64,000 nt of DNA from Candidatus Latescibacterota bacterium (GTDB lineage: Bacteria > Latescibacterota > UBA2968 > UBA8231), in NCBI GenBank assembly GCA_965204725.1, contig OZ242005.1, forward strand, positions 1,472,001 through 1,536,000, written 5' to 3'. Positions within the stretch are counted from its first letter, which is position 1, and each line of letters starts with the position of its first letter. Below the pieces are notes generated by a model, which saw only the letters and a list, made by a program, of their open reading frames with translations, was not told the DNA's origin and searched no databases. Shown here piece after piece: positions 1-30,260 of the stretch. The translations under genes and the position numbers were made by a program.

Positions 1-1443
1 CTTTCCTAGCCAAAAGATATGCGCCCCGGTCTCGACCTCGGTCCACCCCATCGCACGCGGGATATTGCGGTGCTTTCCCAACTTTTCTGGGGCGGCGGTC
101 CGATCCGCAAACCAAGTGAGGTCTCTGTATTCGTTGCTGTAAACCCTGCCCTCAATGCGATTGTTCCGAAGGTAATTCAGGGTCTCGGAATGTTGCCAAC
201 GGGCGGCGTGGTGAAAATGAGCACGGAATCCGATAGCATAAGCTGTGGCGGTAAGACGGAGGTTTTTTTGCGCAGAGAAGCCGATGTGGGTGAGAGCCCC
301 CAGCACGACGAGGGACGCCAACCCGTAGCGGACGGCCACCATCCGGCCCGAAGCCTTGATCGACAGGGACCGATCCAGCAGCAACGCCGCCACCAACAGC
401 AGCGGCACGTATATCGGCATCAGGTAGCGGCTGTCGATGCCCTGCCTAACCGTAAAGGGCACGGTGGCGACCATGAATGCGAGGTAGATCCCGGTGAACG
501 CCCCGAATGGGAGAGCCGGCCCCAAGGCGTCTGGGTCCGGCCGACGACTGGTGCGCAGAATGACCTCGGCGCTGGCGAGGACGACCGCGGCGACCGCCAG
601 CCACAGCAGATATGCAAACCCGTCTGGCGTGTGCCGGGGGACGAGCCATTCGTGGAACACCTCGACGATCTGGCGCAGCCCATCGGATAGGGACTGCCCC
701 GTAGGTTCTGTTCTGTGCCCTGCTGCCCGGGTCAGGTGCCCGGTGGCCGCCCAATTCCGCACCAAGACCGCCAGCAAGGGCAGGGACGAGACCGCGCCAA
801 AGACGAGAGTCTGCCTTAGCCGGGCGCGGGGCAACAGCAGCAGAAGGACGCCGGTGCCGATTAGCACCACGCCCGGATAGCGGGTTATCGCGGCCAGCCC
901 GGTAAAAATCGCCGCCCACCACAGGGGCGCGGCCGTCCTTTGGTTTAGGAAGGACGCCAACTGCATCAAGGCGAGGAGCGTAAACAGGAAGAAGAGGGTC
1001 TCGGTCTGGAGGGAGGACGCCCAATAGCTCAAGGGCAGGGAGACCGCGATGATCGCGGTGGCGGCCAGCGTCAGCCTCTGCGACCTAAGATGCGAGCGCA
1101 GCCAGCACCCGGCGGCGAGGATGGTCAGCCCGAAGGCCGCGGCGTGGACCCACCGAGTCGTCGCCAGCGGATCGATGCCGACCCAACTGCTGGCCGCCAG
1201 CAACAGGGGGATCAAGGGCGGCCACATCGTCAGCGGTTCGCCCTTGAAATCCCGCCAGCCCTCTCCGGCGAGGAAGTTTAGGGCCGTAGAAAGGTAAATG
1301 ACGGAGTCTGTGCCGACCGCGACGCCGTAGGTGGCGGTGCGGACGAGGATGTGGGCGGTGCCCAGCCCGGCGATAAGGGCGATGACAAGCAGGGTGGGGC
1401 GGTCGCGCCAGAATTGGGCGAGCCACTCGAACAAGGAATTCAT
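1..1443 (-). CDS. Array copy 1, GT-C-like membrane protein (3' end beyond window)
   Basis: Not in the ORF track because it runs off the window edge. Translated by hand: ATG at 1443, MNSLFEWLAQFWRDRPTLLVIALIAGLGTAHILVRTATYGVAVGTDSVIYLST..., and the same frame reads WTEVETGAHIFWLGK at position 1. Confidence 0.85.
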   Translation of the reverse strand, partial: MNSLFEWLAQFWRDRPTLLVIALIAGLGTAHILVRTATYGVAVGTDSVIYLSTALNFLAGEGWRDFKGEPLTMWPPLIPLLLAASSWVGIDPLATTRWVHAAAFGLTILAAGCWLRSHLRSQRLTLAATAIIAVSLPLSYWASSLQTETLFFLFTLLALMQLASFLNQRTAAPLWWAAIFTGLAAITRYPGVVLIGTGVLLLLLPRARLRQTLVFGAVSSLPLLAVLVRNWAATGHLTRAAGHRTEPTGQSLSDGLRQIVEVFHEWLVPRHTPDGFAYLLWLAVAAVVLASAEVILRTSRRPDPDALGPALPFGAFTGIYLAFMVATVPFTVRQGIDSRYLMPIYVPLLLVAALLLDRSLSIKASGRMVAVRYGLASLVVLGALTHIGFSAQKNLRLTATAYAIGFRAHFHHAARWQHSETLNYLRNNRIEGRVYSNEYRDLTWFADRTAAPEKLGKHRNIPRAMGWTEVETGAHIFWLGK

Positions 1444-1456
1444 AGGATGGCCTGTA

Positions 1457-3445
1457 TCATCGGCTCGGCGAAAACTCCGCTTCCCAGAGGGTGCGGTCCT
1501 CTTCAGAAATCCACTGGCCGATATGGATGCGGCGAATGGCGTAGGGGGGGAGCCGGATGATTGCCATACACTGGTCGCCGACCCGCTCGCCGCGCCAGTA
1601 AAAATAGAAGTCGAGATTATCCGAATCGTACTGTTGACGGTCGGCTCGCAGGTCGGCTGGGTCGGTGGGGACGACGTGCAAGATGAACTTTGCCTGCACG
1701 TCCGCAGGAGTACACGGCTCTTTGAGATAGGTCAGCCTGCGTCCGGTGCGGTACACGTTCCAGCCAGCGCGAACCACTTGCTCGTCGGCCTGTTGGATGA
1801 GTTGGTTCATGTAGCGTTGTTTGCGGGCGCGATGCTTTTTCGCATCGAAGGGTTCGACCGCCGTGCGGCGGAGGACGAAGCCGTCGGCCAGTTCGGCCAC
1901 GACTTCCACGCCGGACAGGACGCGGATGTCCGTGTCGTCGTGGGTGCGAAACGCTCGATTATAGAATCGATCAAACCAAACGATATGCGCTCCGGCCTCC
2001 ATGTTGGGCCACCGCATCTTCCCCGGGATACTTCGGTGCTTGCCCGGGTCGGCGGCTCGCTTGGCGACCCAAGAAAGCTCTCTGTTGTTGCTGTAAATGC
2101 TGCTGTCGATGTGGTTGTCCCGCAAGTAGTTCAGGGTCACGGACTGTTGCCAGTAGGCGGTGTTGTACATCCAGTCTTTTTCGTATCCGGCGATGTATGC
2201 TTTGGCGGTGATACGGAGGTTTTTTCGCGCTGAGAAGCCGACGTGGGCGAGGGTGGCGAGCACGACGAGGGCCGCTAGTCCGTAGCGGACAGCCCCCATC
2301 CAGCCCGTCGCCTTGAAGGACAGGAATCGGTCCAGCAAGAACACGGCCGTCAACAGCAGCGGCACGTATATCGGCAGCAGGTAGCGGCTATCGACTTCCG
2401 GGTTAGTCGTGAGGGGCATGACGACGATGAGGAATACGAGGTAGAGCACGGCGAATGCCCCGAAAGGGAGAACCGGCCCCAACCCAAAGGATGGCGGCGC
2501 GGCCTCTGGGTCCGACCGACGACCGGCGCGGAAGATGACCACGGCACTGGCGAGGACGACCGCGGCGACCGCCATCCCTAGCAGATACGCAACCCCGTCT
2601 GGCGTGTTCGGGGGGACGATGCTCTCACGGAACACCTCGACGGTCTGGCGCAGCCCAGCGGCTAGGGACTGACCCGAGGACTCTGTTCTGTCCCCTGTCA
2701 CCCGGGTCAGGTTCCCGGTGGCCACCCAATTCCGCGCCAACACCGCCAGTAGGGGCACGGACGAGATCGCGCCAAAGATGAGGGTCTGCTTCAGCCGGGC
2801 GGTGAGCAGCAGGATGAGGACGCTAGTGCCGATCAATGCCACGCCCTCATAGCGGGTTATCGCGGTCAGCGCGGTGAAAATCGCCGCCCACCACAGGGGC
2901 GCGGCTGTCCTCCGGCTGAGGAAGGACGCCAACTGGATCAAGGCGAGGACCGTAAGCAGGGTGAACAGGGGATTGGTTTCGAGGTGGGCCGCCCACCTGT
3001 TCAAGGGCAACGAGGCCGTGAGGGCCGCGGTGGCCGCCAGTGCCAGCCAGCGCGACCGGAGATTGGAGCGCAGATAGCAGCCGGCGGCGAGGATGGTCAG
3101 CCCAAAGGCGGTGGCGTTGATCAACCGACCCGCGGCGACCGGCTCGATGCCGACCCAACCGCCGACCGCCATCAGTAGGGGGAACAAGGGCGGCCATGCC
3201 GTCATCGGGTTGCCCGTGAAATGCCGCCAGCCCTCTCCGGCGAGGAAGTTTGTGGCCGTAGAAAGGAGAATGACGGAGCCCGTGCCGACGGCCGCGCCGT
3301 AGGTGGCGGTGCGGACGAGAACGTGCGCGGTGCCCAGCCCGGCGAGGACGACGATGAGCAGGGTGGTGCGGTCACGCCAGAATTGGGCGATCCACTCGCT
3401 GGCGGAGTGCTTCACCGTAGAAAGGAATTCACTAAAAACAATCAT
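1457..3445 (-). CDS. Array copy 2, GT-C-like membrane protein + C-terminal domain
   Basis: 662-aa ORF, many hydrophobic segments, WPPLFP and RYLLP motifs typical of ArnT/PMT_2-like proteins. Confidence 0.85.
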   Translation of the reverse strand: MIVFSEFLSTVKHSASEWIAQFWRDRTTLLIVVLAGLGTAHVLVRTATYGAAVGTGSVILLSTATNFLAGEGWRHFTGNPMTAWPPLFPLLMAVGGWVGIEPVAAGRLINATAFGLTILAAGCYLRSNLRSRWLALAATAALTASLPLNRWAAHLETNPLFTLLTVLALIQLASFLSRRTAAPLWWAAIFTALTAITRYEGVALIGTSVLILLLTARLKQTLIFGAISSVPLLAVLARNWVATGNLTRVTGDRTESSGQSLAAGLRQTVEVFRESIVPPNTPDGVAYLLGMAVAAVVLASAVVIFRAGRRSDPEAAPPSFGLGPVLPFGAFAVLYLVFLIVVMPLTTNPEVDSRYLLPIYVPLLLTAVFLLDRFLSFKATGWMGAVRYGLAALVVLATLAHVGFSARKNLRITAKAYIAGYEKDWMYNTAYWQQSVTLNYLRDNHIDSSIYSNNRELSWVAKRAADPGKHRSIPGKMRWPNMEAGAHIVWFDRFYNRAFRTHDDTDIRVLSGVEVVAELADGFVLRRTAVEPFDAKKHRARKQRYMNQLIQQADEQVVRAGWNVYRTGRRLTYLKEPCTPADVQAKFILHVVPTDPADLRADRQQYDSDNLDFYFYWRGERVGDQCMAIIRLPPYAIRRIHIGQWISEEDRTLWEAEFSPSR

Positions 3446-3473: not shown

Positions 3474-5432
3474 TCACCGGCTGGCCGAAAACTCCGCTTC
3501 CCATAAGGTACGGTCCTCTTCAGAAATCCACTGGCCGGTATAGATGCGGCGAATGGCGTAGGGGGGGAGTCGGATGATTGCCATACACTGGTTGTCGACC
3601 CGCTCGCCGCGCCAGTAGAAATAGAAGTCGAGATTGTCCGAATCGTACTGTTGGCGGTCGGCTCGCAGGTCGGCTGAGTTGGTGGGGACGACGTGCAAGA
3701 TGAACTTTGCCTGCACATCCTCGGGAGCGCACGGCTCTTTGAGATAGGTCAGCTTGCGTCCGGTGCGGTACACGTTCCAGCCGGCGCGGACGACTTGCTC
3801 GTCGGCCTGTTGGATGAGTTGCTCCGCGTAGCGTTGTTTGCGGGCGCGATGCTTTTTTGCATCGAAGGGTTCGACCGCTGTGCGGCGGAGTACGAGGCCG
3901 TCGGCCAGTTCAGCCACGATTTCCACGCCGGACAGGACGCGGAGGTCCGTGTCGTCGTGGGTGCGAAACGCTCGATTATAGAATCGATCAAACCAAACGA
4001 TATGCGCTCCGGCCTCCATGTTGGACCACCGCATCTCCCCGGGGATACTTCGGTGCTTGCCCGGGTCAGCGGCTCGCTTGGCAAACCACGCAAGCTCTCT
4101 GTTGTTGCTGTAAATCCTGCTGTCGATATGGTTGTCCCGCAGATAGTTCAGGGTTTCGGACTGTTGCCAATAGGCGGTGTTGTACATCCAGTCTTTTTCG
4201 TATCCAGCGATGTATGCTTTGGCGGTGATACGGAGGTTTTTTCGCGCTGAGAAGCCGACGTGGGCGAGGGTGGTCAGCACGACGAGGGATACCAGCCCGT
4301 AGCGGACAGCTCCCATCCAGCCCGTCGCCTTGAAGGACAGGAATCGGTCCAGCAAGAACACGGTCGTCAACAGCAGCGGCACGTATATCGGCAGCAGGTA
4401 GCGGCTATCGACGCCCTGCCTAACCGTGAAGGGCACGACGACGATGAGGAATGCGAGGTAGAGCACGGTGAACGCCCCGAAAGGGAGAACCGGCCCCAAC
4501 CCAAAGGCTGGCGGTGCGGCCTCTGGGTCCGACCGACGACCGGCGCGCAGGATTACCGCGGCACTGGCGAGGACGACCGCGGCGACCGCCAGCCCTAACA
4601 GATACGCAAACCCGTCCGGCGCATTCGGGGGGACGATGCTTTCACGGAACACCTCGACGGTCTGGCGCAGCCCAGCGGCTAGGGACTGCCCCGAGGCGTC
4701 TGTTCTGTGCCCTGTCGCCCGGGTCAGGTCCCCGGTGGCCGCCCAATTCCGCACCAATACCGCCAGCAAGGGCACGGACGAGACCGCGCCAAAGACGAGG
4801 ATATACCTTAGCCGAGCGAGGGGCAGCAGTAGCAGGACGGCGGCGGCGATCAGCACCACGCCCGGATAGCGGGTTATCGCGGCCAGCGCGGTGAAAACCG
4901 CCGCCCACCACAAAGGCGAGGCCGTCCGCCGGCTGAGGAAGGATGCCAACTGGATCAAGGCGAGGAGCGTCAACAGGACGAAGAGGAGCTCGGCCTTGAA
5001 ATGGGACCCCCAATGGCTCAAGGACAGGGAGGCCGCGATGGGCGCGGTGGCGACTAGCACCAGCCACCGCGCCTGGAGATGCGAGCGAAGCCAACACCCG
5101 GCAGCGAGGATGGTCAGCCCAAAGGACGCGGCGTTGATCCACCGACCCGTGGCTACTGGATCGATGCCGACCCAACCGCCGGCCGCCAGCAACAGGGGGA
5201 ACAAGGGCGGCCATAATATCAGTGGGCTGCCCGTGAAATGCTGCCAGCCCTCTCCGGCGAGGAAGTTTGTGGCTGTAGAAAGGAAAAGGACGGAGTCCGT
5301 GGTGACGGCCGCGCCGTAGGTGGCGGTGCGGGCGAGGATGTGGGCGGTGCCCAGCCCGGCGATAAAGACGATGAGCAGCGCGAAGGGGTCGCGCCCGAGC
5401 CGGACGATCTTCTCAAATGCGGAGTGCTTCAT
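3474..5432 (-). CDS. Array copy 3
   Basis: 652-aa ORF; C-terminal half nearly identical to copy 2. Confidence 0.85.
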   Translation of the reverse strand: MKHSAFEKIVRLGRDPFALLIVFIAGLGTAHILARTATYGAAVTTDSVLFLSTATNFLAGEGWQHFTGSPLILWPPLFPLLLAAGGWVGIDPVATGRWINAASFGLTILAAGCWLRSHLQARWLVLVATAPIAASLSLSHWGSHFKAELLFVLLTLLALIQLASFLSRRTASPLWWAAVFTALAAITRYPGVVLIAAAVLLLLPLARLRYILVFGAVSSVPLLAVLVRNWAATGDLTRATGHRTDASGQSLAAGLRQTVEVFRESIVPPNAPDGFAYLLGLAVAAVVLASAAVILRAGRRSDPEAAPPAFGLGPVLPFGAFTVLYLAFLIVVVPFTVRQGVDSRYLLPIYVPLLLTTVFLLDRFLSFKATGWMGAVRYGLVSLVVLTTLAHVGFSARKNLRITAKAYIAGYEKDWMYNTAYWQQSETLNYLRDNHIDSRIYSNNRELAWFAKRAADPGKHRSIPGEMRWSNMEAGAHIVWFDRFYNRAFRTHDDTDLRVLSGVEIVAELADGLVLRRTAVEPFDAKKHRARKQRYAEQLIQQADEQVVRAGWNVYRTGRKLTYLKEPCAPEDVQAKFILHVVPTNSADLRADRQQYDSDNLDFYFYWRGERVDNQCMAIIRLPPYAIRRIYTGQWISEEDRTLWEAEFSASR

Positions 5433-5456: not shown

Positions 5457-7463
5457 TCACCGGCTCGGCGTCAACTCCGCTTCCCAGAGGGTGCGGTTCT
5501 CTGCGGAAATCCACTGGCCGATATGGATGCGGTCTATGGCGTAGGCGGGGAGGCGGACGATTGCCACGCACTGGTCGCCGAGATAGGAGCCGCGCCAGTC
5601 GAAGTAGAAGTCGAGATTTTCAGAACCGTACTGTTGGCGGTTCGCTGGCAGGTCGGCCAAGTCGGTAGGGACGACGTGCAGAACGAATTTCGCTTGGACG
5701 TCCGCGGGGACGCACGGCTCTTTGAAATAGATCAGCTCGTGTGTCGTGCGGTACACGTTCCAGCCGGCGCGGACTACCCGCTCGTCGGCTTGTTGGATGA
5801 GTTGCTGCACATAGCGTTGTTTCCGAGCGTGATGTCTTTTCCCATCGAAGGGTTCGGCTGCTGTGCGGCGGAACACGACGCCGTCGGCTAGGTCGGCCAA
5901 GGTTTCCATGCCGGACAGGGCGCGGAGGTCGAGGTCGTCGTAGCCGTAAAAACCTCGATAATGGAACGCCCGGAACCAAAGAATATGCGCCCCGGCCTCG
6001 ATCTCGGTCCACCTCGTCGTCTCCGGGATATTGCGGTGCTTTCCCGGGGCGGCGGTCCGCTCCCAAAACCAAGTAAGGTCTTTGTAGAAGTTGCTGTAAA
6101 TCGTGCCCTCTATGCGGTTGTCCCGCAGGTAGTTCAGGGTCTCGGATTGTTGCCAACGGGCGGTGTTGTAAGCGTGGGACGGGAATCCGGTGGCATAAGC
6201 TCGGGTGGTAAGACGGAGGTTCCTGTGTACGGAGAAGCATAAGTGGGCGAGGGTGGCGAGCAAGACGAGGGGCACCAGCCCGTAGCGTCCGGCCCCCGTC
6301 CGGCCCGCTGCCTCAATGGATAGGAACCGATCCAGCAGGAACACGGCCGTCAATAGCAGCGGCACGTATATCGGCAACAGGTAGCGGCCGTCGATGATCT
6401 GAGTAACCGTGAAGGGCACGACGACGATGAGGAATGCGGGATAGCTCAAGGCGAACACTCCGAACGGGAGCGCCGGCCCCAAGCGGAGATAGGCCGGGGC
6501 GGCCTCTGGGTCCGACCGACGACCGCGCAGGATGACCACCGCGCTGGCGAGGACGACCGCGGCGACCGCCAGCCACAGCAGATACGCAAACCCATCCGGC
6601 ATGTTCCGGGGGACGATATACTCGCGGAACGCCTCCACGGTCTGGCGTAGCCCATCGGCGAGGGACTGCCCCGAAGGATCTAGTATGTCCCCGGCGAAGG
6701 ACTGGTCCGTAGGCGTTCTGTCGCCTGTTGCCCGGGTCAGGTTTCCGGTGGCCGCCCAATTCCGCACCAGCACCGCCAGCAAGGGCACAGACGAAATCGC
6801 GCCAAAGACGAGGGTATGCCTTAGCCGAGCGAGAAGCAGTAGTAGCAGGACGCCGACGCCGATCAACACCACGCCCGGATAGCGGGTTATCGCGGCCAGC
6901 GCGGTGAAAACCGCCGCCCACAACAGGGGGGGCCAAGCCGTCCGCCGGTTGAGGAAGGTCGCCAACTGGATCAAGGCGAGGAGCGCGAACAGGATGAAGA
7001 GGGGGTCGGTTCGGATGCGGGGTGCCCAATGGCTCAAGGGCAGGGAGGTCGCGAGGAGCGCGGTCGCGGCCAGCACCAGCCACTGCGACCTAAGATGCGA
7101 GCGCAGCCAGCACCCGGCGGCGAGGATGGTCAGCCCAAAGGCGGTGGCGTTGACCCATCGACCCGTCGCCAGCGGATCGATGCCGACCCAACTGCTGGCC
7201 GCCAGCAACAGGGGGAACAAGGGCGGCCATAAGGTCAGCGGCCTGCCTATGAAATCCCGCCAGCCCTCTCCGGCGAGGAAGTTCAGGGCCGTAGAGAGGA
7301 AAAACGTGGAGTCTCTGTCTATCCCCGCACCGTAGGTAGCGGTGCGGACGAGGATGTGTGCGGTGCCCAGCCCGGCGAGGACGACGATGAGCAGGGTGGT
7401 GTGGTCGCGCCCGAACCGGGCGAGCCGCTTCACCGCAGAAAGGAATTCATTAAAACCAATCAT
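5457..7463 (-). CDS. Array copy 4
   Basis: 668-aa ORF, same motifs; insertion TPTDQSFAGDILDP. Confidence 0.85.
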   Translation of the reverse strand: MIGFNEFLSAVKRLARFGRDHTTLLIVVLAGLGTAHILVRTATYGAGIDRDSTFFLSTALNFLAGEGWRDFIGRPLTLWPPLFPLLLAASSWVGIDPLATGRWVNATAFGLTILAAGCWLRSHLRSQWLVLAATALLATSLPLSHWAPRIRTDPLFILFALLALIQLATFLNRRTAWPPLLWAAVFTALAAITRYPGVVLIGVGVLLLLLLARLRHTLVFGAISSVPLLAVLVRNWAATGNLTRATGDRTPTDQSFAGDILDPSGQSLADGLRQTVEAFREYIVPRNMPDGFAYLLWLAVAAVVLASAVVILRGRRSDPEAAPAYLRLGPALPFGVFALSYPAFLIVVVPFTVTQIIDGRYLLPIYVPLLLTAVFLLDRFLSIEAAGRTGAGRYGLVPLVLLATLAHLCFSVHRNLRLTTRAYATGFPSHAYNTARWQQSETLNYLRDNRIEGTIYSNFYKDLTWFWERTAAPGKHRNIPETTRWTEIEAGAHILWFRAFHYRGFYGYDDLDLRALSGMETLADLADGVVFRRTAAEPFDGKRHHARKQRYVQQLIQQADERVVRAGWNVYRTTHELIYFKEPCVPADVQAKFVLHVVPTDLADLPANRQQYGSENLDFYFDWRGSYLGDQCVAIVRLPAYAIDRIHIGQWISAENRTLWEAELTPSR

Positions 7464-7514: not shown

Positions 7515-9413
7515 TCACCGGCCCCCCGAAAACTCCGCTTCCCAGAGGGTGCGGTTCTCTGAGGAAATCCACTGGCCGATATGGATGCGGCTGATGGCGT
7601 AAGCGGGGAGCGGGACGAGCGCGATACATTGGTCGGCTACCCGCTCGCCGTGCCAGTCGAAATGGAAGTCGAGATTTTCAGAACCGTATCGTTTGCGGTG
7701 GGCTGGCAGGTTCATCGGGTCAGTGGGGACGAGGTGCAAGACGAACTTCGCCTGTATGTCCGCAGGGGCGCACGGCTCTTTGCGGTAGATCAGCTTGCGT
7801 TTCGTGCGGTACACGCCCCAGCCGGCGCGAACCACTCGCTCGCTCGCCTGTTGGATGAGTTGCTGCACATAGCGTTGTTTGCGGGCATGATGCCTTTTCT
7901 CATCGAAGGGTTCGGTTGCCGTGCGGCGGAGGACGAGGCCGTCGGCCAGTTCGGCTACGGTTTCCACGCCGGGCAGGACGCGGAGGTCTGTGTCGTCGTA
8001 GCCGAGAAAAGATCGCTGAGAGCCTCTATCAAACCAAACGATATGCACTCCAGCCTCGATCTCGGGCCACCGCAGCCTACGCGAGAGGTTTCGGTACTTG
8101 CCCGGGGCGGCCCTATCCGCAAGCCAAGCAAGTGCTCTGTAGTTGGTGTAAATCGTGCCCTCGATATGATTGTCTCGCAGGTAGTTCAGAATCTTGGAGT
8201 GTTGCCAACGGGCGATGTTGTGCGTCCAGTCTTGTTCGTATCCAGTTCGCCATGCTTGGGCGGTAAGAATGAGGTTTTTTCGCGCCGAGAAGCCGACGTG
8301 GGCGAGGGTGGCCAGCAAGACGAGGGCCGCGAGACCGTAGCGGATGGCCGCCATCCGGCCCGCCGCCTCAATGGATAGGAATTGGTCCAGCAAGAACACG
8401 GCCGTCAACAGCAGCGGCACGTATATCGGCAGCAGGTAGCGGCTGTCGATGCCCTGATAAACCGTGAGGGGCGCGACCGCGACCATGAATACGAGGTAGG
8501 TCAAGGCGAATCCCCCGAAAGGGAGCGCTGGCCCTAAGCGGACATATACCGGCGCGGCCTCTGGGGCGGCGCGGAGGACGACCACCACGCCAGCGAGGAC
8601 GACCGCGGCGACGGCCAGCCCCAGCAGATACGCCAACCCGTCCGGCGCGTTGGGGGGGACGACCCACGTGCGGAACACCTCGATGGCTTGGCCCAGCCCA
8701 GCGGATAGGGACTGCCCCGAGGGATAGCGGTCCCCTGTGGCTTGAGTCAGGCTCCCGATGGCCGCCCAATTCCGCGCCAATACCGCTAGCAAGGGCAGGG
8801 ACGAGATCGCGCCAAAGACGAGGGTGTGTTTAGGCCGGGCAAGAGGCCACAGGATGAGGACGCCGGCGGCGATTAGAGCCACGCCCGGATAGCGGGTCAG
8901 GGCGGCCAGCGCGGTGAAAACCGCCGCCCACAACAGGGGGGGCCACACCGTCCGCCGGTTGAGGAAGGACGCCAACTGGATCAAGGCGAGGAGCGGGAAT
9001 AGGACGAAGAGGGGCTCGGTGATGTGGTAGGACGCGAAATGGGTGAGGGGCAGGGAAGCCGCGAGGGTCGCGGTAGCGGCCAGTGCCAGCAGCCGCGACC
9101 GGAGATTCGAGCGCAGCCAGCACCCGGCGGCGAGGATGGTCAGCCCGAAGGCGGTGGCGTTGATCCACCGACCCGCCTCTAGCGGATCGACGCCGACCCA
9201 AGCGAGGGCCGCTAACAGCAGGGGGAACAAGGGCGGCCATCCTGTCAGCGGCCTACCCGTGAAATATCGCCAGCCTTCTCCCTCGAGGAAGTTCAGGGCC
9301 GTGGACATGAAAACGATGGAGTCCGAGTTGAGCACTGCGCCGTAGGTGGCGGTGCGGACGAGGATGTGCGCGGTGCCCAGCCCGGCGAGGACGACGATGG
9401 TAAGAACAATCAT
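7515..9413 (-). CDS. Array copy 5
   Basis: ORF 7515-9545; start trimmed to ATG 9413 (MIVLTIVVLAGLG) by alignment with paralogs. Confidence 0.8.
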   Translation of the reverse strand: MIVLTIVVLAGLGTAHILVRTATYGAVLNSDSIVFMSTALNFLEGEGWRYFTGRPLTGWPPLFPLLLAALAWVGVDPLEAGRWINATAFGLTILAAGCWLRSNLRSRLLALAATATLAASLPLTHFASYHITEPLFVLFPLLALIQLASFLNRRTVWPPLLWAAVFTALAALTRYPGVALIAAGVLILWPLARPKHTLVFGAISSLPLLAVLARNWAAIGSLTQATGDRYPSGQSLSAGLGQAIEVFRTWVVPPNAPDGLAYLLGLAVAAVVLAGVVVVLRAAPEAAPVYVRLGPALPFGGFALTYLVFMVAVAPLTVYQGIDSRYLLPIYVPLLLTAVFLLDQFLSIEAAGRMAAIRYGLAALVLLATLAHVGFSARKNLILTAQAWRTGYEQDWTHNIARWQHSKILNYLRDNHIEGTIYTNYRALAWLADRAAPGKYRNLSRRLRWPEIEAGVHIVWFDRGSQRSFLGYDDTDLRVLPGVETVAELADGLVLRRTATEPFDEKRHHARKQRYVQQLIQQASERVVRAGWGVYRTKRKLIYRKEPCAPADIQAKFVLHLVPTDPMNLPAHRKRYGSENLDFHFDWHGERVADQCIALVPLPAYAISRIHIGQWISSENRTLWEAEFSGGR

Positions 9414-9430
9414 TTGCGTCGGTGTCCTTA

Positions 9431-22213: not shown

Positions 22214-24192
22214 CTTGGCGGAAACTCCGCTTCCCAAAGGGTGCGGTCCTCTTCGGCAATCCACTGGCCGATATGGATGCGGTCGATGGCGTAGCTGGGG
22301 AGTCGGACGATTGCGATGCACTGGTCGCCGAGGCGGAAGCCGAGCCAGTCGAAATAGAAGTCGAGATTATCCGAATCGTACTGTTGGCGGTGGACTGGCA
22401 GGTCGGCCGGATCGGCCGGGACGAGGTGCAAAATGAACTTCGCCTGTATGTCCGCGGGGACGCACGGCTCTTTGCGGTAGATCAGTGTGCGTCCCGTGCG
22501 GTACACGTTCCAACCGGCGCGGACCACTTGCTCGTCGGCCTGTTGGATGAGTTGGTCAACGTAGCGTTGTTTCCGAGCGTGATGCCTTTTCTTATCCAAG
22601 GGTTCGTACGCTGTGCGGCGGAGGACGAGGCCGTCGGCCAGTTCGGCCACGGTTTCCATGCCGGGCAGCAGACGGAGGTCCAAGCCGCTGCGGGAGAAAT
22701 GAGTTCGATCATAGACCCTCTCAAACCGAACGATATGCGCCCCGGCTTCGATTTCGGTCCACCGCCTCTTGCCCGGGATTTTCCTGCCTAGGATTTGTTG
22801 GTGTTTTCCCGGAGCCGCGGTCCGCTCCGCAAACCAAGCAGAGTATCTGTCGTTGGTGTAAATCCGGCCCGCAATGGGGTTGTCCCGGAGGTACGTCAGG
22901 GTCGCGGAATGTTGCGAACGGGCGGTGTTGAACATCCAGTCTTCTTCGTACCCGACGACATAAGCGCGGGCAGTAAGACGGAGGTTTTCGTGCGCCGAGC
23001 AGCATAAGTGGGCGAGGGTGGCCAGCAAGACGAGGGCCGCCACAGCGTAGCGGACAGCCGCCATCCGGCCCGTAGCCTCGATGGACAGGAACCGATCTAG
23101 CAGGAACACGGCCGTCAACAGCAGCGGCACGTATATCGGCAGCAAGTAACGGACGGGGAACTCAACGGGGACCACGAGCGGCACGATGACCACCGTGAAT
23201 ACGAGGTAGATCGCGGCGAACCCCCCGAATGGGAGTGCCGGCCCCAACCCGAAGGATGGCGACTTGCCGCCCATGCCTAAGCCGCGACCAGCCAGAACGA
23301 CGACCGCCCCCGCTGCCAGAACAACCAGCCCGGTCGCTATCCACAGGAGATACGCCAACCCGTCCGGCGCGTTCGGAGGAATCACCCACCCCCGGAATAC
23401 ATCCGCCACTCGGCTCAGCGAATCGGATAGAGACTGCCCCGAGAGCTCTTTTCTGTACCCTGCTGCCAAGGTCAGGTCCCCGGTGACCGCCCAGTTGTGC
23501 GCCAATACCGCCAGCAAGGGCACGGACGAGATCGCGCCAAAGACGAGGGTCTGCCTTCGCCGAGCGAGGGGCAGCAGGATGAGGACGCCGGTGCCGACCA
23601 GCACCACGCCCGAATAGCGGGTTATTGCGGCCAGCGCGGTGAAAACCGCCGCCCACCACAGGGGCGCGGCCGTCCGCTGGCTGAGGAAGGCCGCCAACTG
23701 GATCAAGGCGAGGAGCGTAAACAAGACGAAAAGGGCGTCGGTCATGAAGTGGGACGCCCAACGGCTCAAGGGCAGGGAGGCCGCGAGGGTCGCGGTGGCG
23801 GCCAGCGTCAGCCACTGCGACCGGAGATTCGAGCGCAACCAGCCCCCAGCGGCGAGGATGGTCAGCCCGAAGGTGGTGGCGTTGATCAGCCGCCCCGCCT
23901 CCAGCGGATCGATGCCGACCCAACCGAGAGCCGCCAGCAGCAGGGGGAACAAGGGCGGCCATTCTACCGTTGAGTTGCCTTTGAAATCCCGCCAGCCCTC
24001 TCCGGCGAGGAAGTTCAGGGCCGTAGAAAGGAAAGCTATGGAGTCCTGAGTGACCGCGGCACCGTAGGTGGCGGTGCGGACGAGGACGTGTGCGGTGCCT
24101 AGTCCGGCGAGGACGATGATTAGCAGGGTGAAAGGATCGCGCCCGAACCGGGTGATCCACTCGGGGGCGGAGTGCTTCAGCAAATTCCACAT
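22210..24192 (-). CDS. Array copy 12
   Basis: Start near ATG 24192 (MWNLLKHSAPEW); a nearby TTG is an alternative. Confidence 0.8.
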   Translation of the reverse strand: MWNLLKHSAPEWITRFGRDPFTLLIIVLAGLGTAHVLVRTATYGAAVTQDSIAFLSTALNFLAGEGWRDFKGNSTVEWPPLFPLLLAALGWVGIDPLEAGRLINATTFGLTILAAGGWLRSNLRSQWLTLAATATLAASLPLSRWASHFMTDALFVLFTLLALIQLAAFLSQRTAAPLWWAAVFTALAAITRYSGVVLVGTGVLILLPLARRRQTLVFGAISSVPLLAVLAHNWAVTGDLTLAAGYRKELSGQSLSDSLSRVADVFRGWVIPPNAPDGLAYLLWIATGLVVLAAGAVVVLAGRGLGMGGKSPSFGLGPALPFGGFAAIYLVFTVVIVPLVVPVEFPVRYLLPIYVPLLLTAVFLLDRFLSIEATGRMAAVRYAVAALVLLATLAHLCCSAHENLRLTARAYVVGYEEDWMFNTARSQHSATLTYLRDNPIAGRIYTNDRYSAWFAERTAAPGKHQQILGRKIPGKRRWTEIEAGAHIVRFERVYDRTHFSRSGLDLRLLPGMETVAELADGLVLRRTAYEPLDKKRHHARKQRYVDQLIQQADEQVVRAGWNVYRTGRTLIYRKEPCVPADIQAKFILHLVPADPADLPVHRQQYDSDNLDFYFDWLGFRLGDQCIAIVRLPSYAIDRIHIGQWIAEEDRTLWEAEFPPR

Positions 24193-24206
24193 GGAGTTTT
24201 GGGTAT

Positions 24207-24302
24207 GAGATACTTCGCTTCGCTCAGTATGACAAGGGCTGGGGCATGAAGTCCCCGTCTGTGTGTCATGCTGAGCGCAGCGTAGCGCAGTCGAAGCATC
24301 TC
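24207..24302. repeat. REP-like inverted repeat pair between copies 12 and 13
   Basis: GAGATACTTCGCTTCGCTCAGTATGACA ... TGTCATGCTGAGCGCAGCGTAGCGCAGTCGAAGCATCTC; resembles the GTCATxCTGAGCGxAGCGAAG extragenic repeat type. Confidence 0.7.
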
Positions 24303-24334
24303 TACATGCTTGCAAGTCATTTAGGACGGCTATA

Positions 24335-26293
24335 TCACCGGCTGGCCGGCAACTCCGCTTCCCAGACGGTGCGGTCCTCTTCGGCAATCCACTGGCCGAC
24401 ATAGATGCGGTCAATGGCGTAGGCGGGGAGCGGGATGATTATCGTACACTGGTCGCCGAGATAGAAGCCGTGCTGGTGGAAATAGAAGTCGAGATTGTCA
24501 GAATCGTACTGTTGGCGGCGGACTGGCAGGTCGGCGGGGTCGGTGGGGACGACGTGCAGAACGAACTTCGCCTGCACATCCGCGGGGCCGCACGGCTTTT
24601 TGAAGTAGAGCAGTTTGCGTCCCGTGCGATACACGTTCCAGCCAGCGCGAGCTACTCGGTCGCTGGCCTGTTGGATGAGTTGGTTCATGTAGCGTTGTTT
24701 GCGGGCGCGATGCTTGTCTGCATTGAAGGGTTCAGTTGCCGTGCGGCGGAGGACGAGGCCGTCGGCCAGTTCGGCCACGATTTCCATGCCGGGCAGGACG
24801 CGGAGGTCGAGGTCGTCGTGGCCGAGATAACCGCGGATAAAGCCCTTCTCAAGCCAAACGATATGCGCCCCGGCCTCAATCTCGGTCCACCGCATCTTGC
24901 GCGGGAGATTTAGGTGCTTTTTGGGAATAGCAGTCCGATCCGCAAACCAAACAAGGGGTCTGTAGTTGCTGTAAATCCTGCCCTCTATGCGGTTGTCCCG
25001 CAGGTAGTTCAGGGTCTCGGAATGTTGCCAAAAGGCGGCGTTGTACATCCAGTCTTGTTCGGCGACATAAGCCTTGGTAGTAAGACGGAGGTTCCTGTGT
25101 ACGGAGAAGCCGACGTGGGTGAGAGTGCCCAGCACGACGAGGGCCGCCACAACGTAGCGGGCGGCCACCATCCGGCCCGCCGCCTCGATAGACAGGAACC
25201 GATCCAGCAGGAACCCCGCCGCCAACAGCAGCGGCACGTATATCGGCAGTAGGTAGCGGCTGTCGATTGTCTGATGAACTGTGAAGGGCACGACGGCGAT
25301 GATGAATACGGAGTAGATCACGGCGAACCCCCCGAAGGGGAGAGCCGGCCCCAAGCGGAAAGAGGCCGGTGCGGCCTCTGAGTCCGGCTGACGACGACCA
25401 AGGACTACTACGGTGCTGGCGAGGACGACCGCTACGACCGCCAGCCCCAGCAGATACGCCAATCCATCCGGCGCGTTTGGGGGGACGACCCACTCGTGGA
25501 ACACCTCGACAGTCTGGCGCAGCCCGGCGGATAGGGACTGCCCCGTCGGCTCTAGCTCTGGTCTGTTGCCTGTTGCCCGGGTCAGGTGCCCGGTGGCCGC
25601 CCAGTTGTGCGCCAATACCGCCAGCAGGGGCACAGACGAGATCGCGCCAAAGACGACGGTGTGCTTCCACCGGGCGAGGGGCAGCAGTAGCAGGACGCCG
25701 GTGCCGATCAGAGCCACGCCCGGATAGCGGGTTATCGCGGCCAGTGCGGTGAAAACCGCGCCCAGCAGCAAGGGGGTCCTCCCGCCGCGATGGAGGAAGG
25801 ACGCCAACTGGATCAAGGCGAGGAGCGTCAACAGGATGAAGAGGGAATCGGTCATAAGGTGGGACGCCGAATGGCTCAAGGGCCGGGAGGCCGCGACGAT
25901 CGCGGTGGCGGCCAGCGCCAGCCCCTGCGACCGGAGATTGGAGTGCAACCAGCACCCGGCGACGAGGATGGTCAGTCCAAAGGCCGCGGCGTTGATCCAC
26001 CGACCGGCCTCCAGCGGATCGATGCCGACCCAACTGCTGGCCGCCAGCAACAGGGGGAACAAGGGCGGCCATAACGTCAGCGGCCTACCCGCGAAATCCC
26101 GCCAACCCTCGCCCGCGAGGAAGTTCAGGACCGTAGAAAGGAAATATGTGGCGTCCACGGTGATCGCCGCGCCGTAGGCCGCGGTGCGGACGAGGATGTG
26201 CGCGGTGCTCAGCCCGGCGAGGACGACGATGAGCAGGGTGAAGGGGTCTCGATAGAACCGGACGAGCCACTTGATGGCGGAGTGCTTCAGCAA
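24335..26293 (-). CDS. Array copy 13
   Basis: TTG start at 26293 with AGGAGG 7 nt upstream (cctcct at 26301-26306). Confidence 0.82.
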   Translation of the reverse strand: MLKHSAIKWLVRFYRDPFTLLIVVLAGLSTAHILVRTAAYGAAITVDATYFLSTVLNFLAGEGWRDFAGRPLTLWPPLFPLLLAASSWVGIDPLEAGRWINAAAFGLTILVAGCWLHSNLRSQGLALAATAIVAASRPLSHSASHLMTDSLFILLTLLALIQLASFLHRGGRTPLLLGAVFTALAAITRYPGVALIGTGVLLLLPLARWKHTVVFGAISSVPLLAVLAHNWAATGHLTRATGNRPELEPTGQSLSAGLRQTVEVFHEWVVPPNAPDGLAYLLGLAVVAVVLASTVVVLGRRQPDSEAAPASFRLGPALPFGGFAVIYSVFIIAVVPFTVHQTIDSRYLLPIYVPLLLAAGFLLDRFLSIEAAGRMVAARYVVAALVVLGTLTHVGFSVHRNLRLTTKAYVAEQDWMYNAAFWQHSETLNYLRDNRIEGRIYSNYRPLVWFADRTAIPKKHLNLPRKMRWTEIEAGAHIVWLEKGFIRGYLGHDDLDLRVLPGMEIVAELADGLVLRRTATEPFNADKHRARKQRYMNQLIQQASDRVARAGWNVYRTGRKLLYFKKPCGPADVQAKFVLHVVPTDPADLPVRRQQYDSDNLDFYFHQHGFYLGDQCTIIIPLPAYAIDRIYVGQWIAEEDRTVWEAELPASR

Positions 26294-26309
26294 ATTGGGG
26301 CCTCCTGTG

Positions 26310-28283
26310 TCACGGGCTGGCCGGCAACTCCGCTTCCCAGACGGTGCGGTCCTCTGCGGGAATCCACTGGCCGACATAGATGCGGCTGATGGCATAGTCG
26401 GGGAGTTGGATGAGCACTGTACACTGGTCGTCAACTCGCTCGCCGTGCCAGTCGAAAGGGAAGTCGAGATTGTCAGAACCGTACTGCTGACGGTGGGCTG
26501 GCAGGTTTGCCGGATCGACGGGGACGACGTGCAAGACGAACTTCGCCTGCACGTCTGACGGGGCGCATGGCTCTTTGAAGTAGATCAGCTTGCGTCCGGT
26601 GCGGTACACGCCCCAGCCGGCGCGAACCACCTGTTCGCTGGCTTGTTGGATGAGTTGCTGCACGTAGCGTTGTTTGCGGGCGCGATGCCTTTTTGCATCG
26701 AAGGGTTCGGCCGCTGTTACGCGGAACACAAAGCCTTCGGCCAGTTCGGCCACGAGTTCCACGCCGGGCAGGACCTGGAGGTCGAAGGTATCGTAGCCGT
26801 ACAGACCGAGTCTATTATTGAACTTTCGGAACCAAACGATATGCGCCCCAGCCTCGATTTCGGTCCACTGCATATTGCGCGGGAGATTGCGGTACTTTCC
26901 CGGGGGAGCGCTCCTATTCGCAAACCAAGCAAGTCTGTCGCGGTCGCTGTAAACCCTGCCCTCGATATGGTGGTCCCGGATGTAATTCAGGATCTCAGAA
27001 TGTTGCCAACGGGGGGCGTTAAAACTATGGGCCGGGTATCCGAAGACATAAGCGTGGGCGGTACGACGGAGGTTTCTTCGCGCCGAGAAGCATAAGTGAG
27101 TGAGGGTGGCCAGCAAGACGAGGGACACCAGCCCGTAGCGGACGGCAATCCGCCAGCCTGCCGCCTCGATGGACAGGAACCAGTCCAGCAGGAACACGGT
27201 CGCCAACAGCAGCGGCACGTATATCGGCAGCAGGTAGCGGCTGTCGATTTGCTTCTCAGTCGTGGAGGGCACCACGGCGATCAGGAATACGAGGTAGATC
27301 ACGGTGAATACCCCGAATGGGAGCACCGGTCCCAAGCGGACATACACCGGCGCGGCCTCTGGGGCGTACCGGCGACTGCGAAGGACGACCGCGACGCCGG
27401 CGAGAACGACCGCGGCGACCGCCAGCCACAGCAGATACGCCAACTCATCCGGCGTGTGCCGGGGGACGATCCACGCACGGAACACCTCGACGGTCTGATC
27501 CAGCCCATCGGATAGGGACTGACCCGAAGACGTTGGTCTGTACCCTGCTGCTTGGGTCAGGTATCCGCTGGCCGCCCAGTTGCGGACCAATACCGCCAGC
27601 AAGGGGACGGACGAGACCGCGCCAAAGACGAGGGTCTGCCTTAGCCGGGCGAAGGGCAGCAGGATGAGGACACCGGTGCCGATCAGGGCTACGCCCGGAT
27701 AGCGGGTTATCGCAGTCAGCGCGGTGAAAACCGCCGCCCACCACAGGGGCGCATTCGCCCTTCGGTTGAGGAAGGCCGCTAACTGCATCAGGGCGAAGAG
27801 CGTCAACAGGGCGAAGAGCGAATCGGTCAAGAAGCGTGCCGCGATATCGCTCAAAGGATAGGAGGCCGTGAGGGTCGCGGTGGCGGCCAGTGCCAGCCAC
27901 TGCGACCGGAGATTCGAGCGCAGCCAGCACCCGGCGACGAGGATGGTCAGCCCGGCGGCAACCGCGTTGATCCACCGACCGGCCTCCAGCAGATCGATGC
28001 CAACCCAACCGAAGGCCGCCAGCAACAGGGGAAACAAGGGCGGCCATTCAGTCAGCGGAGCGCCCGTAAGATGCCGCCAGCCCCCTCCCGCGAGGAAGTT
28101 CATGGCCGAAAAAAGGAAATCTACGGAGTCCTCGCCGATCCCCGCGCCGTAGGTGGCGGTGCGGACGAGGATGTGCGCGGTGCCCAGCCCGGCGAGGACG
28201 ACGATGAGCAGCGCGAAGGGGTCGCGCCGGAATCGGGCGAACCACGCGATGGCAGAGCACTTCAGCAAATTCATTCTCCACAT
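26310..28283 (-). CDS. Array copy 14
   Basis: 657-aa ORF, same motifs; exact start uncertain (28268, 28274 or 28283). Confidence 0.82.
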   Translation of the reverse strand: MWRMNLLKCSAIAWFARFRRDPFALLIVVLAGLGTAHILVRTATYGAGIGEDSVDFLFSAMNFLAGGGWRHLTGAPLTEWPPLFPLLLAAFGWVGIDLLEAGRWINAVAAGLTILVAGCWLRSNLRSQWLALAATATLTASYPLSDIAARFLTDSLFALLTLFALMQLAAFLNRRANAPLWWAAVFTALTAITRYPGVALIGTGVLILLPFARLRQTLVFGAVSSVPLLAVLVRNWAASGYLTQAAGYRPTSSGQSLSDGLDQTVEVFRAWIVPRHTPDELAYLLWLAVAAVVLAGVAVVLRSRRYAPEAAPVYVRLGPVLPFGVFTVIYLVFLIAVVPSTTEKQIDSRYLLPIYVPLLLATVFLLDWFLSIEAAGWRIAVRYGLVSLVLLATLTHLCFSARRNLRRTAHAYVFGYPAHSFNAPRWQHSEILNYIRDHHIEGRVYSDRDRLAWFANRSAPPGKYRNLPRNMQWTEIEAGAHIVWFRKFNNRLGLYGYDTFDLQVLPGVELVAELAEGFVFRVTAAEPFDAKRHRARKQRYVQQLIQQASEQVVRAGWGVYRTGRKLIYFKEPCAPSDVQAKFVLHVVPVDPANLPAHRQQYGSDNLDFPFDWHGERVDDQCTVLIQLPDYAISRIYVGQWIPAEDRTVWEAELPASP

Positions 28284-28295
28284 AAGCGTCCGGTA

Positions 28296-30260
28296 TTACT
28301 GGCTCGGGGAAAACTCCGCTTCCCAGAGGGTGCGGTTCCCGGCGGCAATCCACTGGCCGACCCGGATGCGGCCGATGGCGTAGGCGGGGAGGCGGACGAT
28401 CATCATACATTGGTTGCCGACCCGCTCGCCGCGCTCGCCGAAATAGAAGCCGAGGTTGTCATAGCCGTACCGCTCGCGGTGGGCTGGCAGGTCGGCTGGG
28501 TCGGCTGGGATGACGTGCAAGACGAACTTTGCCTGCACGTCCGCGGGGGCACATGGCTCTTTGCGGTAGGTCAGCTTGCGTCCCGTGCGGTACACGCCCC
28601 AGCCGGCGCGGGTTACTTGCTCGTCGGCCTGTTCGATGAGTTGGTTCACGTAGCGTTGTTTGCGGGCGCGATGCCTTTCCGCATCGAATAGTTCGGTAGT
28701 CGTGCGGCGGAACACAACGCCGTCGGCCAGTTCGGCCACAATTTCCACGCCGGGCAGGACGCGGAGATCCGTGTCGTCGTGACCGAGAAAAGATCGATTA
28801 TAGATCGCATCAAACCAAATGATACGCGCCCCGGCCTCAATTTTGGTCCACCGCATCGCCCGCGGGGTATTTTGGTACTTTCCCAACTTTTCCGGGGCGG
28901 CGGTCCGATCCCAAAACCAAGCAAGTTCTCGGCTGTTGGTGTAAATCCTGCCCTCAATAGGGTGGTCCTGGAGGTACTGCAAGGTCTCGGACTGTTGCCA
29001 AGAGGCGGCGTTGTACGTCCCGTGTTCGTACCCGGCTCGCCATGCTTGGGCGGTAAGAATGAGGTTTTTTCCCGCTGAGAAGCCGACGTGGGCGAGGGTG
29101 CCCAGCGCGACGAGGGACGCCACAACGTAGCGGACAGCCACCATCCGGCCCGTAGCCTCAATGGACAGGAACCGATCCAGCAGGAACGCGGCCGTCAACA
29201 GCAGCGGCACGTATATCGGCAGGAGGTAGCGGCTGTCGATACCCTGAGTAACCGTGAAGGGCACGACCACGGTCATGAATGCGATGTAGCCCACGGTGAA
29301 CGCCCCGAATGGGAGTGCCGGCCCCAACCCGAAGGATGGCGGCGCGGCCTCTGGGTCTGGCTGGCGACCGCGCAGGACAGCCGCCGCGCTGATGAGGACG
29401 AGTGCCGCGACCGCCAGCCCCAGCAGGTACGCAAGTCCATCCGGCGTTTTCAGGGGGACGATCCATTCGCGGACCACCTCAACGGTCTGGTACAACCCAG
29501 CGAATAGGGACTGCCTCGAAGGTTCTGTTCGGTGCCCTGTTACTTGGATCAGGTTTCCGGTGACCGCCCAGTTGTGCGCCAATACCGCCAGCAAGGGCAG
29601 GGACGAGACCACGCCAAAGACGAGGGTGTGTTTCCACCGGGCGAGGGGCAGCAGCACGAGGACGCCGGTGCCGATTAGGGCCGCGCCCGGATAGCGGGTC
29701 AGCGCGGCCAGCGCGGTGAAAACCGCTGCCAGCAGCAGGGGCGTCCTCCCACCGCGATGGAGAAAGGCCGCCAATTGGATCGAGGCGAGGAGCGGGAACA
29801 AGACGAAGAGCGGCTCGGCCTTGATGTGGGACGCCCAACGGCTCAAGGGCAGGGAGGCCGCAATGGCCGCGGTGGCGGCCAGCACCAGCCAGCGCGACCG
29901 GAGATTGGAGCGCAGCCAGCCCCCGGCAGCGAGGATGGTCAGCCCAAAGGCGGTGGCGTTGATCCACCGACTCGCGGCCACTGGATCGATGCCGACCCAA
30001 CCGCTGGCCGTTAGCAACAGGGGGAACAAGGGCGGCCATCCCACCATCGGACTGCCCGTGAAATACCGCCAGCCCTCGCCGGCGAGGAAGTTCAGGGCCG
30101 TAGAAAGGAAAACTACGGAATCTACGGTGACCGCGGCGCCGTAGGTGGCAGTGCGGACGAGGATATGGGCGGTGCCTAGCCCGGCGAGGACGACGATGAG
30201 CAGCGCGCAGCGGTCGCGCCCCAACCGGGCGATCCACTCTCTGGCGGAACGCTTCAGCAA
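28296..30260 (-). CDS. Array copy 15 (promoter-proximal)
   Basis: 654-aa ORF, TTG start with GGAGG RBS. Confidence 0.85.
   Translation of the reverse strand: MLKRSAREWIARLGRDRCALLIVVLAGLGTAHILVRTATYGAAVTVDSVVFLSTALNFLAGEGWRYFTGSPMVGWPPLFPLLLTASGWVGIDPVAASRWINATAFGLTILAAGGWLRSNLRSRWLVLAATAAIAASLPLSRWASHIKAEPLFVLFPLLASIQLAAFLHRGGRTPLLLAAVFTALAALTRYPGAALIGTGVLVLLPLARWKHTLVFGVVSSLPLLAVLAHNWAVTGNLIQVTGHRTEPSRQSLFAGLYQTVEVVREWIVPLKTPDGLAYLLGLAVAALVLISAAAVLRGRQPDPEAAPPSFGLGPALPFGAFTVGYIAFMTVVVPFTVTQGIDSRYLLPIYVPLLLTAAFLLDRFLSIEATGRMVAVRYVVASLVALGTLAHVGFSAGKNLILTAQAWRAGYEHGTYNAASWQQSETLQYLQDHPIEGRIYTNSRELAWFWDRTAAPEKLGKYQNTPRAMRWTKIEAGARIIWFDAIYNRSFLGHDDTDLRVLPGVEIVAELADGVVFRRTTTELFDAERHRARKQRYVNQLIEQADEQVTRAGWGVYRTGRKLTYRKEPCAPADVQAKFVLHVIPADPADLPAHRERYGYDNLGFYFGERGERVGNQCMMIVRLPAYAIGRIRVGQWIAAGNRTLWEAEFSPSQ

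Follow-up and report, generated by a model that had tools for sequence, protein, structure and literature searches.

Mosaic genes in a tandem array of a predicted GT-C-fold membrane glycosyltransferase family in a Candidatus Latescibacterota bacterium

We consider a stretch of 64,000 nucleotides (nt; "the window") of a Candidatus Latescibacterota bacterium (assembly GCA_965204725.1, contig OZ242005.1, positions 1,472,001 to 1,536,000), of which positions 1-30260 hold 15 co-directional paralogous open reading frames (ORFs) on the minus strand, listed at about 650-860 amino acids (aa). These copies, numbered c1 to c15 from left to right as in an earlier note on the same DNA, make up the right two-thirds of the largest array of their family in this genome, a 48-kb array of 23 copies at C1:1453843-1502278, where C1 stands for the 5.38-Mb contig that bears the window. 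The copies are mosaics, and DNA has been transferred between them. The array has very probably been shaped by tandem duplication and general homologous recombination over evolutionary time, with no programmed mechanism at work.

In the mechanism that we propose, copies would arise by tandem duplication via unequal crossing-over and would then repeatedly overwrite stretches of about 90-400 nt of each other by RecA-type homologous recombination (interlocus gene conversion), both within the array and between arrays that lie hundreds of kb apart. Each gene would in this way become a mosaic, with different nearest relatives in different parts. Such events would be spread over evolutionary time and fixed in the population, the host's general recombination system would be responsible, and no programmed, site-specific or cassette-and-expression-site mechanism would take part.

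Mosaic structure of the copies

The earlier note had named six peptide blocks as shared between particular, non-adjacent copies, and all six are present in exactly the copies named when the blocks are checked by protein alignment of the copies and by regular-expression searches with coordinates. APEKLGK is found in c1 (73-93) and c15 (28878-28898), and IGSLTxATGDRYPSGQSLSAGLGQA in c5 (8685-8759) and c9 (17537-17611). LVRRAPPLxxRLKH together with WAVSGTLTG is shared by c8 and c10, AAGAVVV with FP(V/F)RYLLP by c8, c10 and c12, FLHRGGRTPLLL by c11, c13 and c15, and FTVGYIAFM with VVPFTVTQGIDSR by c11 and c15. Genome-wide, APEKLGK, the IGSLT block, FLHRGGRTPLLL and FTVGYIAFM/VVPFTVTQGIDSR are confined to these copies; the family has 4 members with LVRRAPPL and 10 with AAGAVVV, other arrays included. 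Placed on the predicted topology, the blocks fall in cytoplasmic turns (FLHRGGRTPLLL, LVRRAPPL) as well as in periplasmic loops (IGSLT, FPxRYLLP), and the variation would therefore not be confined to the outer face of the membrane.

The recombination tests use the 14 complete copies of the window and a codon alignment of their common core (2100 columns), in which nucleotide identities are 74-89% over the whole core and the relationships are almost star-like. In 150-nt sliding windows, the nearest neighbour shifts along every copy save the c2/c3 pair. The pairwise homoplasy index (PHI; 676 informative sites, 1806 ungapped columns) has a value of 0.6045, compared with 0.6713 +/- 0.0037 under permutation, which gives z = -17.8 with 0 of 2000 permutations as low, and the third codon positions alone give z = -5.1 (0 of 1000 permutations). 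With maximum-likelihood trees of four 525-nt segments, the approximately unbiased (AU) test rejects 11 of the 12 cross-assignments at p < 0.05, the lone exception being the segment-2 tree on segment 1 (p = 0.083). The tree of the whole alignment is rejected on the last two segments, and the likelihood differences between segment trees amount to 26-331 log units. The segment trees are incongruent, and no single tree holds along the genes.

Individual tracts were located with a home-made, GENECONV-like score (1058 polymorphic sites, 300 permutations). Tracts with a global P <= 0.05 are found in 6 of the 91 pairs: c5-c9, c2-c3, c10-c11, c11-c15, c5-c6 and c8-c9. The tract of c5 (8593-8809) and c9 (17445-17661), for example, is 94.5% identical over 217 nt (253 alignment columns), compared with 80.5% elsewhere in the pair; that of c10 (19759-20005) and c11 (21758-22004) is 93.5% identical over 247 nt versus 76.7% elsewhere; and that of c11 (21158-21297) and c15 (29184-29323) is 96.4% identical over 140 nt versus 81.0% elsewhere. 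Half of the ten best tracts connect adjacent copies, and the rest connect copies 4-6 positions apart. In all 11 tracts examined the synonymous divergence (pS) is 0-0.15 inside, whereas it is 0.18-0.32 outside in the same pairs, a 2- to 6-fold fall that reaches zero in one short tract. The low synonymous divergence in the tracts and the third-position PHI therefore show copied DNA, and not convergence or parallel selection on peptides.

Exchange also reaches beyond the array. Among 528 copy-by-window tests of main-array copies, 93 have their nearest neighbour outside the main array. The most mosaic copy is c8. A stretch of about 390 nt in it matches a copy 310 kb off (C1:1173931) at 82-100% identity, with 10 of 12 windows at 90% or more; the two genes are 81.5% identical overall and 50-70% identical just upstream of this stretch. 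The C-terminus of c8, which carries a duplication, is like that of c7 and c9, its middle blocks are like those of c10 and c12, and between them lies the part that resembles the copy from another array.

Could the shared blocks have come about without recombination, through duplication of multi-gene units together with, in short motifs, parallel selection or unequal rates? Two observations would fit such a history. Along the array c10/c12 alternate with c11/c13/c15, and the family tree groups them together; and APEKLGK is the weaker case among the blocks: c1 and c15 have a 3-codon indel in common there, the nucleotide identity around it is not raised, and no surrounding tract is seen. A single history, however, cannot yield the rejected cross-trees or the third-position PHI, nor does it agree with the fall of pS in the tracts or with a c8 that groups differently at its C-terminus, in its middle and in between. 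Whole-gene identities in register (81-82%) are also barely above those out of register (77-81%). We regard a history free of recombination as very improbable. The earlier note was thus right that different blocks have different nearest relatives, on which the sliding neighbours, PHI, AU test and tracts agree, and its view that non-adjacent copies have recombined is borne out by the incongruent trees, PHI and the drop of pS.

Tempo and mechanism of the exchange

A second alternative takes up the model of the earlier note, in which recombination in conserved spacers reshuffles variable cassettes, as a programmed system akin to antigenic variation, active within the population and yielding new variants of the enzyme or of the surface. 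In the known silent-cassette systems (Neisseria pilE/pilS, Borrelia vlsE/vls, Mycoplasma genitalium MgPar), truncated donors without promoters feed a single expressed gene, and variants arise within a population at high frequency. The array resembles them in its segmental gene conversion, its many related sequences and its mosaic coding sequences for the cell surface. In favour of the model, the block-wise sharing between non-adjacent copies is real, the proteins evolve fast (omega about 0.59 overall, with local windows above 1), and the family is very large and likely acts at the cell surface. Unlike the silent-cassette systems, however, the array consists of complete ORFs throughout, its tracts are old, and one arrangement is seen in four samples. 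There is no layout of an expression site with silent cassettes: all 14 complete copies of the window are full-length ORFs with start codons, on a single strand and tightly packed or overlapping, and the array as a whole has 22 intact copies out of 23 (an intact copy being one of at least 630 aa).

The breakpoints and the recombination substrate speak against programmed shuffling as well. Nucleotide conservation along the gene is graded, from 0.56 to 0.93 per 30-nt bin, and for the 20 ends of the ten best tracts the conservation percentile averages 0.58, near the random expectation of 0.5. The discrete variable cassettes between conserved spacers that had been proposed are therefore not what the genes display. 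Most tracts are 92-98% identical, not near-identical, and have therefore aged since their transfer. The window copies contain 612 exact direct repeats of at least 25 nt, the longest of 86 nt, and inverted repeats of at least 16 nt are absent from them; there is therefore ample substrate for general recombination and none for inversion systems. A scan of 19 flanking ORFs finds no recombinase, integrase or transposase family, in keeping with the remark in the earlier note that no dedicated recombinase is visible.

Is the shuffling active today? Public reads were examined as Logan contigs from four runs of four studies, aligned at 95% identity or higher. At this level the runs cover 30, 30, 30 and 22 of the 30 bins into which the stretch was divided, 8 of the 30 bins of run X5 being without cover and given zero weight. 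The contigs that match at 99% or higher number 555 of 790, 536 of 859, 271 of 399 and 65 of 80 aligned ones, respectively. The contigs are short: the 32 pieces described as the longest of 2173 measure 210-559 nt. Contigs from the four runs have the same sequences in the same arrangement, and no alternative joint is well supported. Among the public runs listed with matching DNA, 5 are labelled sponge metagenome; the list includes no RNA run.

Several candidate joints were inspected and rejected as chimeric alleles. Six listed joints have sides of at most 37 nt. Two runs contain one of these joints, and each of the other five is known from one contig in one run; the short sides and the lone contigs are the grounds on which they were set aside. 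A joint from 20896 to 12346, present in three runs among inserted letters, corresponds to a paralog at C1:1176623.

The search for chimeric alleles in populations, which had been suggested together with the shuffling model, thus returns none that is well supported in the contigs of the four runs, with the limit that rare variants could escape it. The shared arrangement in four runs is weak evidence against ongoing shuffling. With tracts that are old, ORFs that are all full-length and four runs that carry the same sequences, the claim of an active reshuffling into new combinations is not supported, and we consider a programmed system highly unlikely.

Least probable of all is that the mosaics are assembly chimeras of misjoined similar paralogs: while repeated arrays are a classic source of misassembly and the Logan short-read contigs do break here into pieces of a few hundred nt, the copies (74-89% identical) are too different to collapse or be confused, the window lies on a 5.38-Mb contig, the contigs of the four runs match mostly at 99% or higher with three runs covering all 30 bins, all ORFs stay open through the junctions, and the shared tracts are diverged (92-98%), unlike the identical segments of chimeric joins.

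Our preferred reading, slow exchange between copies by general recombination, has points that weigh against it. The segment trees were chosen on the very segments tested, which inflates the AU contrast, though the likelihood differences are large, and the tract finder is home-made, being neither RDP nor GARD. The Logan contigs are short and drop rare variants, so that rare chimeric alleles or shuffling in a minority of cells could escape. Without ancestral states, non-reciprocal conversion is indistinguishable from a reciprocal crossover followed by loss. Part of the similarity between non-adjacent copies (c10/c12 versus c11/c13/c15) could stem from the duplication of multi-gene units. The pS between paralogs is about that between orthologues of the flanking genes, yet the array is absent from this site in the congeneric genomes G019 and G007; either insertion and growth of the array here or its loss in the relatives would account for this. 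Lastly, 3 of the 15 window copies lack a nearly invariant aspartate (Asp46, discussed below), and some copies may be decaying rather than functional.

With these points considered, gene conversion at a slow, evolutionary pace seems to describe the exchange better than active reshuffling does. Interlocus gene conversion in multigene families is the subject of a general statement in the abstract of PMC8223754, and that of PMC6053082 presents a survey of prokaryotes. The array has much in common with the bacterial form of the process: short-tract, non-reciprocal-looking transfer between paralogs of one chromosome, mosaic genes, incongruence, locally reduced synonymous divergence, and general recombination as a sufficient agent with no need for a dedicated enzyme. 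Bacterial examples include tufA/tufB and the bab/sab outer-membrane protein genes of Helicobacter. The scale is larger than in these bacterial gene-conversion families, with 48 intact copies in the genome, 23 copies in one array and exchange between arrays 300 kb apart. Unlike in concerted evolution, the copies are not homogenised (74-89% identity, omega about 0.59); conversion here mixes diversity. The mechanism is textbook gene conversion and unequal crossing-over, and the novelty lies in the subfamily, in its copy number and in a 48-kb array specific to the lineage.

The array, its surroundings and its history

Genome-wide, the family comprises 59 ORF pieces, of which 48 are intact, in arrays at C1:0.67, 1.17, 1.45-1.50, 1.99-2.04, 4.07, 4.20 and 5.26 Mb. 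At about 2 kb each, 48 copies in 5.43 Mb account for about 2% of the DNA of the genome. Of the 31 genomes of the genus compared, this one (G000 in our numbering) and G046, where 36 matches reach E <= 1e-100, are the only two with many close copies. In a tree of 48 copies from this genome and 31 from G046, the main-array copies form a clade that is mostly confined to this genome and that includes A_1173931, A_1175978, A_1177996, A_2015670, A_2002705 and A_2033871 of it; the G046 copies L001_7373, L001_9348 and L007_559 nest inside this clade, and the other clades mix both genomes.

The array is bordered on its right by a divergent gene for an SGNH/AlgX-like protein (30399..31640, plus strand) and on its left by an epimerase gene. 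In the congeners G019 and G007 these two genes are direct neighbours at a distance of 550-820 nt, and the family has no member in the gap. Window paralogs have a mean pS of 0.28 and a mean nonsynonymous divergence (pN) of 0.18, whereas the flanking orthologues of this genome and G019 have a pS of 0.18-0.36 and a pN of 0.02-0.11. As the paralogs resemble the flanking orthologues in pS and far exceed them in pN, the family is not young and its proteins change unusually fast. This fast protein evolution would reflect changing acceptor specificity or relaxed constraint.

We now describe the window copies, all on the minus strand, from left to right. The 3' part of c1 (1..1443) lies beyond the left edge of the window; the whole gene is ORF C1:1471482-1473731 of the genome. 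The copies c2 (1457..3445, 662 aa, with Asp46 replaced by Gly) and c3 (3474..5432, 652 aa) are the closest pair, at 89% nucleotide identity, and c3 served as reference for the models and searches. An 11-residue insertion is found in c4 (5457..7463, 668 aa), in the loop between transmembrane helices (TM) 7 and 8. For c5, with the ORF as listed at 7515..9545, the likely start is an ATG 26 codons ahead of a GLGTAH anchor, and for c6 (9431..11419, Asp46 to Gly) it is an ATG within the last codons of c7, at an overlapping junction. The C-terminal module is duplicated in c7 (11362..13896), seen as a tandem repeat at 11378-12065 with a period of 351 and a 90% match, and again in c9 (15956..18541; repeat at 15968-16660, period 357), which also has an internal 54-nt duplication (16915-17021). 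Between them lies c8 (13638..16013), in which Ala replaces Asp46 and the first periplasmic loop has a remodelled start. Next come c10 (18283..20328) and c11 (20276..22321), which share a tract with each other, c11 having another in common with c15. They are followed by c12 (22210..24414), which has the AAGAVVV...FPVRYLLP blocks in common with c8 and c10, and c13 (24335..26434), which has FLHRGGRTPLLL in common with c11 and c15. An outlier, c14 (26310..28283, 657 aa), is 74-80% identical in nucleotides to every other copy. Read in the direction of transcription, the array begins with c15 (28296..30260).

The gaps between packed copies are 14-50 nt, except at the overlapping junctions of c5-c9. 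For these five copies the most plausible ATG lies within about the last twelve codons of the gene before it (overlaps 9431-9545, 11362-11419, 13638-13896, 15956-16013 and 18283-18541), and the overlap DNA is read in two frames, as ...RTLWEAEF at the end of the upstream gene and as MGSRVSGQPV at the start of the downstream one. At the equivalent position c11 has a TTG. Judged from these overlapping starts, translational coupling along the array is suggested. The last copy of the array (C1:1453843-1455817) is split into two overlapping frames of 181 aa and 599 aa, probably by a frameshift. A 489-aa ORF rich in Arg, Pro and Gly lies over c11 in another frame (20790-22259, minus strand); it looks like a by-product of high G+C content and not like a gene. 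A scan of 11000-30900 gives 5 promoter-like sites (3.7 expected) and 14 terminator-like sites (15.4 expected), numbers that are uninformative on operon structure.

On the right flank, 30399-35835 encodes the SGNH/AlgX-like protein, a YfhO-family GT-C protein and a TMEM260-like/PMT_2 GT-C protein with TPR repeats, which are further envelope-glycan genes; the YfhO gene is 89-90% identical in three congeners. Further right, at 36582-42896, two UvrD-like helicase ORFs (one of them weak), an NYN-domain ORF and a PD-(D/E)XK nuclease ORF may form either an AddAB-like repair set or a module of the defence type, with no tie to the array. On the left flank, C1:1452561-1453676 and the DNA downstream of it (locus L016) carry, on the strand of the array, genes for an NAD-dependent epimerase/dehydratase, a protein without family, a GHMP kinase and a protein of the metallo-beta-lactamase fold. 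A sugar-activation operon is a possible reading of this set, and transcription through the array would run into it.

Protein family, fold and possible role

The copies constitute an unnamed family of membrane glycosyltransferases whose modelled structure has the GT-C fold. Sequence searches with the copies themselves reveal little: no Pfam match at E <= 0.01 is obtained for the three window copies scanned, NCBIfam gives a weak match to the LA_3751/LA_3752 putative glycosyltransferases (E 0.0026, 16.6 bits against a cutoff of 200), and a search of PDB sequences with a profile of the family (alignment A1) gives 0 matches at E <= 1. An exhaustive HMMER search with residues 1-430 of c3 retrieves 4258 cluster representatives at E <= 0.001, 281 of them at E <= 1e-30. 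Of 45 distant homologues (31-64% identity), 20 match Pfam PMT (PF02366) or PMT_2 (PF13231) at E <= 0.001, and some of these distant homologues exceed the Pfam cutoff; among 120 close homologues listed, 3 have a precomputed match to PF13231 or PF02366.

The AlphaFold2 model of c3 residues 1-430, made with 88 diverse sequences, has a predicted local distance difference test score (pLDDT) of 92.8 and a predicted template-modelling score of 0.92. When close homologues alone are used, the membrane domain is unusable (pLDDT < 50 for residues 1-420) and the C-terminal part is usable. Searched against the PDB with Foldseek, the transmembrane-domain model gives 27 matches at E <= 0.001, all 27 of them GT-C enzymes (ALG9, STT3/OST, ALG3/12, Pmt4, AftB, ArnT, AglB and Emb), with a TM-score of up to 0.60 on the query. 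The layout of c3 is a GT-C-fold membrane domain (1-410), an alpha/beta part (421-545) and a beta-sandwich module (550-652); neither C-terminal part has a Pfam family. From modelled helix positions and loop charges, we predict about 11 transmembrane helices, a cytoplasmic N-terminus and a periplasmic C-terminal domain. The C-terminal 230 residues are modelled at pLDDT 70-92. A fold search with the beta-sandwich (550-652) gives matches to common folds alone (best Z 7.8), and we draw no functional claim from it.

The C-terminal beta-sandwich module (117 aa) occurs twice in c7, c8 (about 13641-14350) and c9, as a tandem duplication of 351-357 nt with a 90% match. Comparable extra length is seen in four family copies upstream of the window (777-803 aa) and in several members of other arrays. 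The module is also found in many other proteins of related genomes, often in tandem, and up to five times in a 1262-aa protein of the genome G025.

The conserved aspartate, Asp46, lies just after TM1 at the start of the first periplasmic loop and is present in at least 90% of the rows of both alignments, A1 and A2. In solved GT-C enzymes, a conserved acidic residue of the first extracytoplasmic loop is catalytic or binds metal, and Asp46 is a candidate counterpart of the catalytic Asp of these enzymes. It is kept in 40 of the 48 intact copies of the genome and in 12 of the 15 window copies, and lost in 8 of 48 genome-wide, among them c2 (Gly), c6 (Gly) and c8 (Ala), which may be inactive or changed in function.

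With the enzymes of the PMT/PMT_2/ArnT type (PF02366, PF13231; Pmt4 9i5k, ArnT 5ezm, AftB 9dlh, ALG9 9s6u) the family has in common the GT-C fold, the near-invariant Asp after TM1 and a predicted periplasmic C-terminal domain; it differs from them in that the three window copies scanned give no Pfam match at E <= 0.01 and that the C-terminal parts are without a Pfam family. The copies would transfer polyprenyl-phosphate-linked sugars to surface glycans or proteins at the periplasmic face. A limited search of the literature on glycosyltransferases of Latescibacter and of sponge associates, and on gene family expansion in sponge symbionts, found no description of the family, which is no proof of absence. 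In the passages of PMC12993501 searched, glycosyltransferase modules enter a count of carbohydrate-active enzymes, and paralogs, tandem arrangement or expansion are not mentioned there.

What might such a family be for? One reading, which we put forward tentatively and hold to be rather unlikely, is that the roughly 48 copies form a standing library of periplasm-facing glycosyltransferases that diversifies surface glycans or glycoproteins, with conversion mixing the acceptor-side segments (the periplasmic loops and the C-terminal domain) under positive selection by phages or by host recognition. If this were true, the array would be an evolutionary combinatorial generator of glycosylation specificities, which to our knowledge has not been described for GT-C enzymes. 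The idea of a cassette shuffler adds little to the picture; it is the size of the family and the fast evolution of its proteins that stand out. These features suggest that large, recombining families of periplasm-acting glycosyltransferases are an unstudied way for uncultured bacteria to vary their surfaces, and they make this family a clear target for asking what such enzymes glycosylate.

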